64,000 nt of DNA from Escherichia coli (GTDB taxonomy: Bacteria > Pseudomonadota > Gammaproteobacteria > Enterobacterales > Enterobacteriaceae): assembly GCF_036507355.1 (NCBI RefSeq), contig NZ_AP027877.1. One strand, 5' to 3'. Below, piece by piece: positions 60,612 through 64,000 of this stretch. How positions within the stretch are numbered: position 1 is the first letter of the stretch; every line of letters starts with the position of its first letter. Under the pieces are notes generated by a model, which was not told where the DNA came from, ran no database searches, and was given only the letters and a program-made list of their open reading frames with translations. Made by a program: the position numbers and the translations under genes.

Positions 60612-60692
60612 AAATACTCCCGCTATCAACTGACGCTAGTATAACGGAAGCAAATCATCTGCAATGCATTAAGCAGCAGGCAAATTGAGGAT

Positions 60693-60719
60693 AAAAAAAA
60701 CCCCCACATCATGTGGGGG
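60693..60719 (-). terminator. rho-independent terminator (minus strand)
   Basis: Hairpin CCCCCACAT C ATGTGGGGG with A8 on plus strand (T8 on minus strand), about 100 bp downstream of the 170-aa ORF. Confidence 0.75.
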
Positions 60720-60818
60720 AAGACAGGGATGGTGTCACAAAAAAGCACCTAACCTGATGATATAAATGGATTTATGTCAACCGCTGTCCACATAGCGTCC
60801 ACATCGTTCAGCGTCCGT

Positions 60819-61331
60819 TTAATCGGACGCTTTTAAATTTTTATTTTTCCCAGCAGAAAAATTAGCTTTCCCGCTGTTTTGCAACTCAACAAGAGGAGAT
60901 AACCGTCGGTAAACAGCCAAAAGTATCTTTAACTGAACCAGTTCATCTGCCCCCGATAGTTGAACCAAGTTTTTACGTTGTTCTTCACTAAGTGCCATCA
61001 CAGATTCAAGTGATTTAACTGCGTCAGAAACAAGTTCAATCTCTTTAATTTGATTCTGTATACGCAGCTTCTCTGATTTCAACTTTGCCCATTCTCTTTG
61101 TCGATATGTACGCATCACCTGATCGTAAACTTTGTTGGCAGCCAGAATACTTCCACCAACAGCAGTAACTAACTCAGCAATCTGCCAAGAGATATCAATA
61201 AGAGCAGACAATTCAATAAAGCCAGGAGAGGCATACTGAATTTTTTTCACTACAGGACGTAAATCTGGTGGAGTCGCACTGTAAGCCCCTCTAAAAAAGT
61301 TCACCACACTGTGCCCACCCTCCCAAGGCAT
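60819..61331 (-). CDS. hypothetical protein (170 aa; predicted coiled-coil C-terminal half, no signal peptide)
   Basis: AT-rich ORF with AGAGGA SD 9 nt upstream of ATG; own terminator; IS lies about 35 bp upstream of start. Confidence 0.6.
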   Translation of the reverse strand: MPWEGGHSVVNFFRGAYSATPPDLRPVVKKIQYASPGFIELSALIDISWQIAELVTAVGGSILAANKVYDQVMRTYRQREWAKLKSEKLRIQNQIKEIELVSDAVKSLESVMALSEEQRKNLVQLSGADELVQLKILLAVYRRLSPLVELQNSGKANFSAGKNKNLKASD

Positions 61332-61365
61332 TGTTGAATATCCTCTTGATCCTCCTTTTAGGCGC

Positions 61366-62431
61366 TGAATTTACAATCCAAGTGCAACAAAAAAAGAAGT
61401 ACTCATCAACTAGAATATAATTTTGTTTCCACACAAAAACCACTTCCAAATGATGAGTACTTCCTACCGACATCTTACAATAAACGAGCGAGAAAAGATA
61501 ATGATTTTACTCGCACAGGGCAAAAAACAAGCAGAAATTGCCAAAGCACTGGGACGTAGCTCCAGCACCATTTCTCGCGAGCTGAAACGACACGCTCTAG
61601 AAAGCTACAGTGCAACGAACGCACAAAACAGCTATTTGAAGCATCGTCAAAATAGCAAAGCACAGCGCAAATTAGAGCAGCCTGAATATTTCAATTTGGT
61701 GCAAGAAAAGTTTCTGACAGAAAACTGGTCGCCCGAACAAATCAGCGCACGATTAAAATTGGAAAAATCTGAATTATCCATTAGTTATTCAACCATTTAT
61801 CGTGGTATTTATTCAGGGTTGTTTGATATAGGCGAACGCAAAGCCAGTCGCAAACTGCGCCACAAAGGCAAAACACGGCATACAAAAAATCATCATGAAA
61901 AACGTGGCAAAATTCAGATATCCAACCATTTGAACGACCGTCCCATTTCGGCGCAAAATCGCAGTCGCTTTGGACATTGGGAAGCCGATACCGTACTGGG
62001 TAAAGCGGGTGGAGCTTGTTTGCTGACGCTGACGGAACGCAAAAGTCGTTTTGAGTTGGTGAAGAAAATTCCTGCCAAAAAAGCCGAAGCAGTCCAAAAA
62101 GCCATGATTGAATTGCTGGATTCACATATATTGCGGTCAATTACGCCAGACCGTGGTAAAGAATTTGCCCAACATCGTTTGGTAACAGAAGCACTGGGTG
62201 TAGAATTTTACTTCCCCGAGCCGCATCAACCGTGGACACGGGGAACGAATGAAAATACAAATGGGTTACTTCGTGAATACTTTCCGAAGCACCAAGACAT
62301 CAATCAGTGGAGCGAAGTTGATATTCAACAGGTGATCAATAAACTGAATTTACGACCACGTAAATGTTTAGGTTGGAAAACACCTTATGAAGTTTACTTC
62401 AAAAAATCGTTGCACTTGGTTTGACAATTCA
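61366..62431 (+). mobile_element. IS30-family insertion sequence (about 1.07 kb; ISApl1-like by size)
   Basis: Imperfect terminal inverted repeats TGAATTTACAATCCAAGTGCAAC (left) and GTTGCACTTGGTTTGACAATTCA (right) flanking a single transposase ORF; boundaries +/-3 bp. Confidence 0.75.
61423..62424 (+). CDS. IS30-family DDE transposase
   Basis: N-terminal HTH (TINEREKIMILLAQGKKQAEIAKALGRSSSTISRELKRH), GHWEADTV and NENTNGLLR motifs; first codon of track ORF is TTG, true start probably internal. Confidence 0.85.
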   Translation: MFPHKNHFQMMSTSYRHLTINEREKIMILLAQGKKQAEIAKALGRSSSTISRELKRHALESYSATNAQNSYLKHRQNSKAQRKLEQPEYFNLVQEKFLTENWSPEQISARLKLEKSELSISYSTIYRGIYSGLFDIGERKASRKLRHKGKTRHTKNHHEKRGKIQISNHLNDRPISAQNRSRFGHWEADTVLGKAGGACLLTLTERKSRFELVKKIPAKKAEAVQKAMIELLDSHILRSITPDRGKEFAQHRLVTEALGVEFYFPEPHQPWTRGTNENTNGLLREYFPKHQDINQWSEVDIQQVINKLNLRPRKCLGWKTPYEVYFKKSLHLV

Positions 62432-62433
62432 AG

Positions 62434-62532
62434 GCCATAAAAAAAACCATATAGCTGCAAATACTCTTTCGTTAAGACCGCGAAATCAGCTAACTCCCAA
62501 CGATTATCAAGCTCAATTATAACTTTTTCCAT
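62434..62532 (-). other. short ORF (33 codons, MEKVIIELDNRWELADF...) with GGTGG SD that runs into the IS right end; possible truncated gene 5' end
   Basis: ATG at 62532 on minus strand, open until the IS boundary. Confidence 0.3.
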
Positions 62533-62636
62533 TTTCCACCAACCTGTCCAACTTTAAAGATTGACTTTTAAGTATATGATAAACATAGTTTATTAAACGT
62601 GATCCACTACTTTTAATGAAGAATATTCCCCAAAAC

Positions 62637-62663
62637 AGAAAGCCCCTCGACTGAGGGGCTTTC
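62637..62663. terminator. bidirectional hairpin terminator
   Basis: AAAGCCCCTC GACT GAGGGGCTTT with T-rich flanks on both strands. Confidence 0.6.
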
Positions 62664-62672
62664 TGTTTGTAA

Positions 62673-62771
62673 TTACATCCACATAATTTGCTGCCCTGAC
62701 GGCAACGGGTGCGGTCTTACGGCGTGGACTTCTCCCGGCTTGTCCAGGGTAATGACATTTTCTTTGTTCAT
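62673..62771 (-). CDS. small ORF (32 aa, MNKENVITLDKPGEVHAVRPHPLPSGQQIMWM)
   Basis: ATG start, ends just before the hairpin terminator; no recognisable homology. Confidence 0.25.
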   Translation of the reverse strand: MNKENVITLDKPGEVHAVRPHPLPSGQQIMWM

Positions 62772-62931
62772 GGTTTTCTCACTTCTGAATCAGGGTTAAC
62801 CGGCCAGCCAGGCTGACCGGATGAAAATCACAGGCCGATATTGCGGCGGTGTTGCTCCAGCCGGTCGACGCCGTTCACCTTCTCAATCATGTTGATGGTG
62901 TCAATTTCGACCAGCTCCTTACCGTCCATCG

Positions 62932-63138
62932 TCAGCCGGAAATAACCCATTTTTCACCGGCACGAGCCTTCGGTTTGCAAGGATCACGCAATTCAATAAT
63001 TGGTAATTTATTTGCCTTCACCATTTCACTGACGGCTGTCTTTGGCTTCCCTAATAAATCAGCAAATTTATCCACATGAACCGCATCAAGCGGATACTGA
63101 ATCACATAATTTTCAGCGTCCATATATGGTACCCTCAT
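62932..63138 (-). CDS. excisionase-like / small winged-helix DNA-binding protein (putative Xis)
   Basis: 68-aa ORF divergent from the HTH-integrase pair; FADLLGKPKTAVSEMVKANKLPIIEL segment resembles excisionase-type winged helix; family assignment tentative. Confidence 0.45.
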   Translation of the reverse strand: MRVPYMDAENYVIQYPLDAVHVDKFADLLGKPKTAVSEMVKANKLPIIELRDPCKPKARAGEKWVISG

Positions 63139-63198
63139 AGGATCCAGCCCTTTCTAAACCACTCAAAACCGTTTAGACGCTGGTTTATTCTCAAATCA

Positions 63199-63250
63199 AT
63201 GGAACCTATATAGGTTCCAGTTTTGAGGGAATTTAGTCCCTATATAGGCA
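63199..63250. promoter_or_regulatory. operator-like palindromes (CCTATATAGG core, two copies) in divergent promoter region
   Basis: GGAACCTATATAGGTTCC perfect 18-bp palindrome (63201-63218) and CCCTATATAGG (63238-63248), plus degenerate CCCTCATAGG at 63132-63141 overlapping the xis-like start codon. Confidence 0.6.
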
Positions 63251-63259
63251 CCATGTCAA

Positions 63260-63553
63260 ATGAAATTAAGCGAAAAGATTAAGGCCTTGCGTGAGGCTGA
63301 AGGGCTAAGCCAATCAAAATTCTGTGAAATCATAGAGTTACCGCTAAGCACACTTAAAAAATATGAAGGAGGAAACTTTGAACCCGGTGGCACAGCTTTG
63401 CTAAAAATCACTATGCATCCCACATTCCAAAAATATGCTCTATGGCTTATGACAGATAAAACCGCGCCGGACGCAGGACAAATCGCACCGGCTCTCGCGC
63501 ACATTGGGCCAGAGTCAACAGAGTCCAACCACTCCGAGAAAAGGATTGGATAA
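63260..63553 (+). CDS. XRE-family (Cro/CI-type) HTH transcriptional regulator
   Basis: 97 aa; LSEKIKALREAEGLSQSKFCEIIELPLSTLKKYE is a typical Cro/C1 HTH. Confidence 0.75.
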   Translation: MKLSEKIKALREAEGLSQSKFCEIIELPLSTLKKYEGGNFEPGGTALLKITMHPTFQKYALWLMTDKTAPDAGQIAPALAHIGPESTESNHSEKRIG

Positions 63554-63622
63554 CTCTATATAAAGATTACATTTTCACCATTTGCTACCAAGATGGTGAA
63601 TACAGCGCCGGAGGGCTTTCTT

Positions 63623-64000
63623 ATGGCAATTAAGAAGCTCGATGATGGTCGCTATGAAGTGGACATTAGACCTCGCGGTCGCGACGGAAAACGCATCCGC
63701 AGGAAATTCGAAAGAAAAGCTGAAGCACTAGCATTTGAGCGATACACAATCGCCAATGCCAGTCAGAAAGAATGGGGAGGCCAGCGAGCAGACCGCCGGA
63801 CTTTGAGTGAGTTGCTGGACATCTGGTGGAAATATCACGGGCAAAACCACGAGCATGGAACAAAAGAGTTTAATCATCTACTCAAAACCATCAGCGGCAT
63901 AGGTGATATACCAGTGAACAGGATGAGCAAAAGGGCTTTGATGGATTATCGTTCCATGCGACTACGTGATGGTATCAGTGCCGCAACGATAAACCGTGAC
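63623..64000 (+). CDS. tyrosine-type site-specific integrase, N-terminal part (truncated by window end)
   Basis: GGAGGG SD 8 nt upstream; 126 codons open to window end; MAIKKLDDGRYEVDIRPRGRDGKRIRRKFERKAEALAFE is a typical arm-type DNA-binding N-terminus; not in the ORF track because there is no stop in the window. Confidence 0.75.
   Translation, partial: MAIKKLDDGRYEVDIRPRGRDGKRIRRKFERKAEALAFERYTIANASQKEWGGQRADRRTLSELLDIWWKYHGQNHEHGTKEFNHLLKTISGIGDIPVNRMSKRALMDYRSMRLRDGISAATINRD

Follow-up and report, generated by a model that had tools for sequence, protein, structure and literature searches.

The window analysed here, i.e., the whole 64-kb stretch of Escherichia coli DNA, contained a single copy of the insertion sequence ISApl1. 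It lay at a locus with pfkA and fieF as neighbours, where a short minus-strand ORF ran into the right end of the element and a 170-codon minus-strand ORF began close to its left end. The element, its transposase gene and the duplicated target dinucleotide were located as follows.

61362..61363, no strand: left copy of the target-site duplication, GC (same dinucleotide at both ends; a single GC in the empty site)
61364..62433, plus strand as given by the transposase gene: complete 1070-bp copy of ISApl1 (100% identity, five-way alignment)
61364..61390, plus strand: IRL, the left terminal inverted repeat, 27 bp (six mismatches against the reverse complement of the right end)
61450..62424, plus strand: ISApl1 transposase gene, 324 aa from the RefSeq-style start (NCBIfam, Pfam, RefSeq annotation)
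62407..62433, plus strand: IRR, the right terminal inverted repeat, 27 bp (contains an outward-facing TTGACA at 62421-62426)
62434..62435, no strand: right copy of the target-site duplication, GC (same dinucleotide at both ends; empty-site comparison)

The inserted element and its target site

The ends of the element were taken from an alignment of the window copy (with 40-bp flanks) and four independent ISApl1 copies, of which those of DC71 (L003) and PSS-13 were chromosomal and those of p2018-11-1BCC_1 (L005) and pHNFP671 were carried on plasmids. The conserved block started at 61364 (GCTGAATTT...) and finished at 62433 (...CAATTCAAG), giving 1070 bp. Over this length there were 0 differences from the copies of E. 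coli DC71 and plasmid p2018-11-1BCC_1, and the remaining two of the four copies were each one base off that common sequence. The published length of ISApl1 is 1,070 bp (PMC5821093). A previous annotation made from the letters alone (the sequence-only reading) had put the ends at 61366 and 62431, i.e., 1066 bp, which was 2 bp short on each side. It had correctly described the terminal inverted repeats as imperfect; the two 27-bp repeats differed at positions 1, 2, 9, 10, 14 and 26.

When 61340-62460 was used as a megablast probe, 449 plasmid records and 234 of the 5,426 complete E. coli genomes had copies of approximately 99.5% identity, and RefSeq/PGAP annotated these matches as "IS30-like element ISApl1 family transposase". 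This was far beyond chance. The transposase frame was an ORF opening with TTG (61423-62424). Its product matched the NCBIfam profile NF033563 (transpos_IS30) with an E-value of 3.2e-92 and 309 bits (cut-off 80) and the Pfam domain HTH_38 above its cut-off (E 2.7e-16), and it scored slightly under the cut-off for the Pfam domain rve (29.1 bits; cut-off 32.6). In L003, L005 and a further locus (L006), the same CDS bore the annotation WP_012478345.1, 'IS30-like element ISApl1 family transposase'. The sequence-only reading had measured 307 aa from the methionine of the MILLAQ motif (61501); the count was right, but a start at this codon would lose the first 13 HTH_38 positions. By its identity to annotated copies, the inserted element was identified as ISApl1, a member of the IS30 family, complete and solitary in the window. 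Thus, both names proposed earlier stood: the family through the transposase profile and the annotation of the copies, and ISApl1 through 1070/1070 identity to annotated copies.

According to the published description, ISApl1 has 27-bp repeats with six mismatches, makes a 2-bp duplication and favours AT-rich targets in which the centre is biased towards GC (PMC5404521). In our alignment, the other four copies had their own 2-bp duplications (gc, ac, tc and gg) at identical boundaries, and the empty site in seven genomes had one GC only. The target in the window was ccttttagGCcataaaaaaaa, AT-rich around a central GC, which fitted the published preference; as read for the AT-rich/central-GC test it was atcctccttttagGCcataaaaaaaaccat, and the same pattern was seen around the other copies. 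When a probe across the left junction (61100-61600) was used, the flank-side matches all ended at query base 264, which corresponded to window position 61363, and the ISApl1 junction was found in no other of the 5,426 complete E. coli genomes. Since both the element and its flanks showed 100% identity, the former to canonical copies and the latter to empty sites, and since the junction was unique, these comparisons suggested a recent, strain-specific insertion.

Two halves of one prophage gene

The sequence-only reading had placed the element just upstream of a 170-aa gene (60819-61331, minus strand) and had noted a 33-codon ORF that read into the right end of the element. The start of the 170-aa ORF was 32 bp from the true end of the element. 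On the other side, the native 33 codons (62532-62434) ran into the element, where they were followed by 21 IS-encoded codons and a stop, so that the resulting chimeric ORF had 54 aa (62368-62532). Removal of the element together with one GC (1072 bp) gave a single 213-codon minus-strand ORF from 62532 to 60819, in which the element had separated codons 33 and 34, where a linker of variable length begins. The two parts of this gene were:

62436..62532, minus strand: 5' fragment, codons 1-32 and the first base of codon 33 (joined to 61363 onward, it gives the 213-aa ORF)
60819..61363, minus strand: 3' fragment, the rest of codon 33 to the stop (contains the 170-aa ORF after the internal Met44)

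The frame was lost if the 1070-bp element alone was removed, or if the 1066 bp of the sequence-only reading were removed with an additional 2 bp. That reading had obtained an in-frame fusion of about 215 aa and suspected that a 2-bp duplication would break it. We reproduced the fusion of 215 aa with its ends, and this excision also kept the frame because 1072 - 1066 = 6; with the true ends the product was 213 aa. The suspicion about the duplication arose because the proposed ends were wrong, as removal of 1072 bp kept the frame and matched real empty sites base for base.

The empty site was rebuilt by joining 60700-61363 to 62436-62700, giving 929 bp. Seven complete E. coli genomes matched this sequence from end to end at 100.0% identity, and 158 covered at least 80% of it. 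The uninterrupted gene was annotated as a single 642-bp hypothetical CDS (WP_000416606.1) in MNCRE44 and PSS-08-1. Relatives of the 213-aa protein were collected from a 90%-clustered database at E <= 0.001, where 118 were listed; 116 of these had 137-235 aa, and nearly all were 198-235 aa long and aligned over 85-99% of the 213 residues. They came from Enterobacter, Siccibacter, Pectobacterium, Pseudomonas, Vibrio and Agarivorans. Homologues with lengths of 209-235 aa from other Gammaproteobacteria spanned the entire protein. In an alignment of 42 sequences, invariant residues were present on both sides of the insertion point: 3 of the 13 invariant positions (W12, Y24 and Y28) belonged to the 33-codon ORF, which also contained six nearly invariant positions (L8, D9, L14, T21, Q26 and Y32). 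An AlphaFold2 model of the whole protein was confident, with a mean pLDDT of 86.8, and its N-terminal part that was now severed (residues 1-43) was modelled as a strand (2-8) and a 23-residue helix (14-36).

On these comparisons, the 33-codon ORF and the 170-aa ORF were recognised as two halves of one 213-codon gene with the element inside it, the 170-aa ORF being the piece past Met44. Hence the position 'just upstream' had to be given up, and the 33-codon ORF with its continuation into the element was found as described. The sequence-only reading had also offered the fusion of the two ORFs, to be checked against uninterrupted homologous loci. Those loci had one CDS in the rebuilt site and the protein family spanned both parts, contradicting the view that the two were always separate genes. 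The correct annotation was thus "213-codon prophage gene interrupted by ISApl1" and not "IS upstream of a 170-aa gene".

The prophage remnant and the family of the disrupted gene

In the genome of MNCRE44, a full P2-like prophage was located between fieF and cpxP, and the 213-codon gene was the last one before attR, adjoining ogr. Near-identical annotated segments of this prophage supported ogr, cox, the C-type repressor and the integrase in the window, and an att repeat was present as well. The part from 62436 to 62741 corresponded to the ogr end of the MNCRE44 prophage. It was followed at 62735-62944 by a 210-bp piece that in MNCRE44 was found 4.7 kb further inside the prophage (L001 17691-17899), spanning the start of an annotated phage tail assembly CDS. 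From 62944 to 64000, the sequence corresponded to the end with a 3'-truncated cox, the C repressor and the integrase. By this comparison, the window prophage could be identified as a decayed P2-like remnant between fieF and cpxP with two internal deletions. Its exact arrangement (62436-64000) was absent from the complete E. coli genomes in the collection, and PSS-08-1 and GZ2408P carried a different remnant with the 213-codon gene intact. Two features of the remnant were:

60690..60736, no strand: attR core, a 47-bp direct repeat with a terminator hairpin (repeat at both remnant ends in PSS-08-1)
62673..62771, minus strand: remnant fusion ORF, 32 codons, reading MNKENVITLD and then KPGEVHAVRPHPLPSGQQIMWM (start of the tail assembly gene and the last 22 codons of ogr)

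The 47-bp repeat occurred in PSS-08-1 at L002 2327-2373 and 5034-5080. The attR core, 82 bp from the stop codon of the gene, contained a strong terminator-like hairpin (60701-60719). Probably, the phage integrated at the cpxP terminator and the hairpin was regenerated at both ends. The fusion ORF existed because an internal prophage deletion had joined the two genes; the tail assembly CDS at this joint was presumably gpE-like. Annotation pipelines might label this ORF as ogrK. Additionally, a G+C-rich hairpin, AGCGTCCGTTTAATCGGACGCT (60810-60831), overlapped the stop codon of the 213-codon gene and scored as a terminator on the plus strand only, opposite to the gene.

In one metagenome assembly and one assembly of a public sequencing run (L016 and L017), an N-terminal fragment of phage gpO was directly followed by a 137-aa fragment with 100% identity to part of the 213-aa protein. 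This pointed to another independent deletion remnant that retained this end of the gene.

The 213-aa protein had no match in Pfam or PHROGs and only noise in NCBIfam. The comparison of its structure with the PDB and a viral structure library gave no informative match and no mechanistic lead, and tblastn found no match in 50,697 deposited phage genomes. A significant similarity was found to the PADLOC profile PD-T4-10_B (E 1.3e-34), covering profile positions 139-346 of 353. The models PDLC04024, PDLC04025 and PDLC04026 were matched with E-values of 1.3e-34, 7.1e-23 and 3.2e-19, only by the C-terminal domain of these long models. Vassallo et al. 2022 (PMC9519451) described PD-T4-10 in E. coli ECOR65 as a toxin-antitoxin-like system of two ORFs that acts by abortive infection. 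Its B protein was toxic, A neutralised B, and B was needed for resistance to T4 (PMC9519451). The toxicity of B, its neutralisation by A and the abortive-infection protection against T-even phages were shown for the ECOR65 system only (PMC9519451).

An exhaustive HMMER search returned 394 representative clusters at E <= 0.001. Two architectures were present, namely short forms of approximately 210-240 aa and long forms of approximately 320-400 aa with an N-terminal DUF6575 domain. This domain was present in the long forms P0167, P0175, P0160 and P0210 and absent from the 213-aa protein, which began directly with the C-terminal domain. For two long forms, the upstream ORF matched PD-T4-10_A (E 3e-35 and 3e-26); it overlapped the B gene in one case and abutted it in the other. 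The loci were:

L018 2547-4080: long-form locus with PD-T4-10A
L019 483-1942: long-form locus with PD-T4-10A

PD-T4-10A had no match among the small ORFs around the window gene or among the upstream genes of short-form loci. Moreover, the uninterrupted E. coli locus had no other ORF of at least 40 aa between the att region and ogr, leaving no room for a partner. The short forms were found in various settings, including an Enterobacter prophage edge by an Ogr-type gene, a Pseudomonas prophage region by a DUF4917 gene and, in Vibrio, an apparent integron cassette array. This suggested that the C-terminal domain of PD-T4-10B can travel alone. From the profile matches and the gene context, the 213-aa protein was classified as a short stand-alone homologue of this domain, and its locus as something other than a PD-T4-10 system. 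Possibly, the short form also has a role in defence or as a toxin, which would be an extrapolation since the match covered the C-terminal domain only and both the antitoxin and DUF6575 were absent.

The insertion event and its comparison with known systems

It was highly probable that ISApl1 had transposed into the 213-codon prophage gene and split it with a 2-bp duplication, the likely result being a knock-out and not the activation of a neighbour. In the proposed course of events, a single intact ISApl1 would have entered the AT-rich stretch with a central GC inside the gene, and it may have used the copy-out-paste-in mechanism that has been described for ISApl1 (PMC5821093). The GC would then have been duplicated and the gene broken between codons 33 and 34. 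The 5' piece would be left as the 54-codon chimeric ORF with the native ribosome-binding site retained, and the C-terminal piece would be without a promoter of its own, with an internal methionine opening the 170-codon ORF. The disrupted gene was most likely inactivated, judging by this anatomy, since the N-terminal 43 residues with conserved positions were severed and the downstream piece was promoterless. The likely outcome would be the loss of a prophage accessory function, possibly in phage defence, rather than the activation of a neighbouring gene.

The opposite reading would be that the element was intergenic, upstream of an independent 170-aa gene whose expression it altered by way of a hybrid or outward-facing promoter. 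The ends of IS30-family elements are able to provide a -35 hexamer, the right repeat contained TTGACA (62421-62426), and a purine-rich sequence preceded the ATG of the 170-codon ORF. However, the TTGACA faced away from this ORF, which abutted the left end of the element in the opposite orientation, and only 32 bp separated the end of the element from the ATG. A consensus scan found no outward promoter at either end of the element. Downstream of the TTGACA there was no -10 hexamer at 16-18 bp, as judged by eye, and the scan was silent there too. The suggestion of the sequence-only reading that a hybrid promoter could drive adjacent genes was thus left without support, the sole good -35 hexamer being misdirected. 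Moreover, the uninterrupted locus was a single 213-codon gene in every genome examined and across the protein family, and we considered the intergenic reading very unlikely. The Shine-Dalgarno-like purine runs 5' of the ATG were codons for KGGSRG, and the 170-codon remnant could be translated if any transcript crossed it.

Knock-out by transposition, as preferred here, might also have been selected. If the protein were a toxin-like abortive-infection effector without a linked antitoxin, its loss could have relieved a cost or changed phage sensitivity. The homology of the disrupted protein to the toxic PD-T4-10B and the absence of an A-type antitoxin gene nearby were in line with this, as were other broken versions of the gene in metagenome and sequencing-run assemblies, namely P0004 (176 aa) and P0013 (137 aa, adjoining a phage gpO fragment). 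On the other hand, the intact gene was tolerated, as the gene region was present in 158 complete genomes, seven of which were base-for-base identical to the rebuilt site. The site fitted the target preference of ISApl1, so that a chance insertion would suffice, and only the one insertion event was seen, its junction being absent from the 5,426 complete genomes. Selection for the insertion was therefore judged improbable. As for P0004 and P0013, the gene listings of their contigs did not suggest the same insertion elsewhere: the 752-bp metagenome contig of P0004 had no other gene called on it, and the gpO fragment beside P0013 indicated a different rearrangement.

ISApl1 was first described in Actinobacillus pleuropneumoniae, and it flanks the mcr-1 transposon Tn6330. 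It is known to mobilise mcr-1 (PMC5821093), and its active transposition to sites around the genome was described for one mcr-1-positive lineage (PMC5404521). The element in the window could thus be imagined as one arm of the composite transposon Tn6330 or as a decayed single-ended derivative of it. This had only the slightest probability, as the 64-kb window held one copy of ISApl1 only and the flanks rejoined into the empty site with a clean 2-bp duplication, meaning that nothing but the 1070-bp element was inserted here. A Tn6330 at this locus was refuted, since neither a second ISApl1 nor a segment of approximately 2.6 kb with mcr-1 adjoined the element. A motif of the mcr-1 N-terminus had no match within the window, which was a weak check beside the clean reconstruction of the empty site. 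When an E. coli chromosome contains ISApl1, this marks its lineage as one exposed to the element best known for carrying mcr-1.

With the transposition into the prophage gene as the preferred reading, the locus can be compared with three known systems. The cargo loci of P2-like phages were described as defence hotspots at the tin/old and Z/fun loci (PMC9519451). The gene in the window was similar in being an AT-rich (~40% GC) accessory gene on a P2-like prophage and a relative of a defence component. However, it occupied a third position, between ogr and attR, that is not a described hotspot, and the prophage here was a deletion remnant. It was conceivable, though unlikely, that the region between ogr and attR was a third slot for defence cargo, the 213-aa protein a minimal single-gene abortive-infection effector and its inactivation by ISApl1 a selected escape. 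If true, this would mean that the toxic C-terminal domain of PD-T4-10B works when both the DUF6575 domain and the A antitoxin are absent.

In comparison with PD-T4-10, residues 3-201 of the 213-aa protein were homologous to the toxin PD-T4-10B in its C-terminal domain. In contrast, the protein was without the N-terminal DUF6575 domain of the 320-400-aa long forms, and its locus had no overlapping upstream PD-T4-10A antitoxin gene, which accompanies those forms. The analysis drew attention to a short PD-T4-10B branch for which this strain is a natural knock-out, to be set against the seven genomes with an identical intact site.

Finally, ISApl1 is an already known element, and the disruption of a gene by it is a routine event. 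The window copy shared with it the length of 1070 bp and 100% sequence identity to annotated copies, as well as the terminal repeats, the 2-bp duplication, the AT-rich target with a central GC and a transposase of the IS30 type with HTH and DDE domains. Nothing within the element was different, and the insertion site alone was new.
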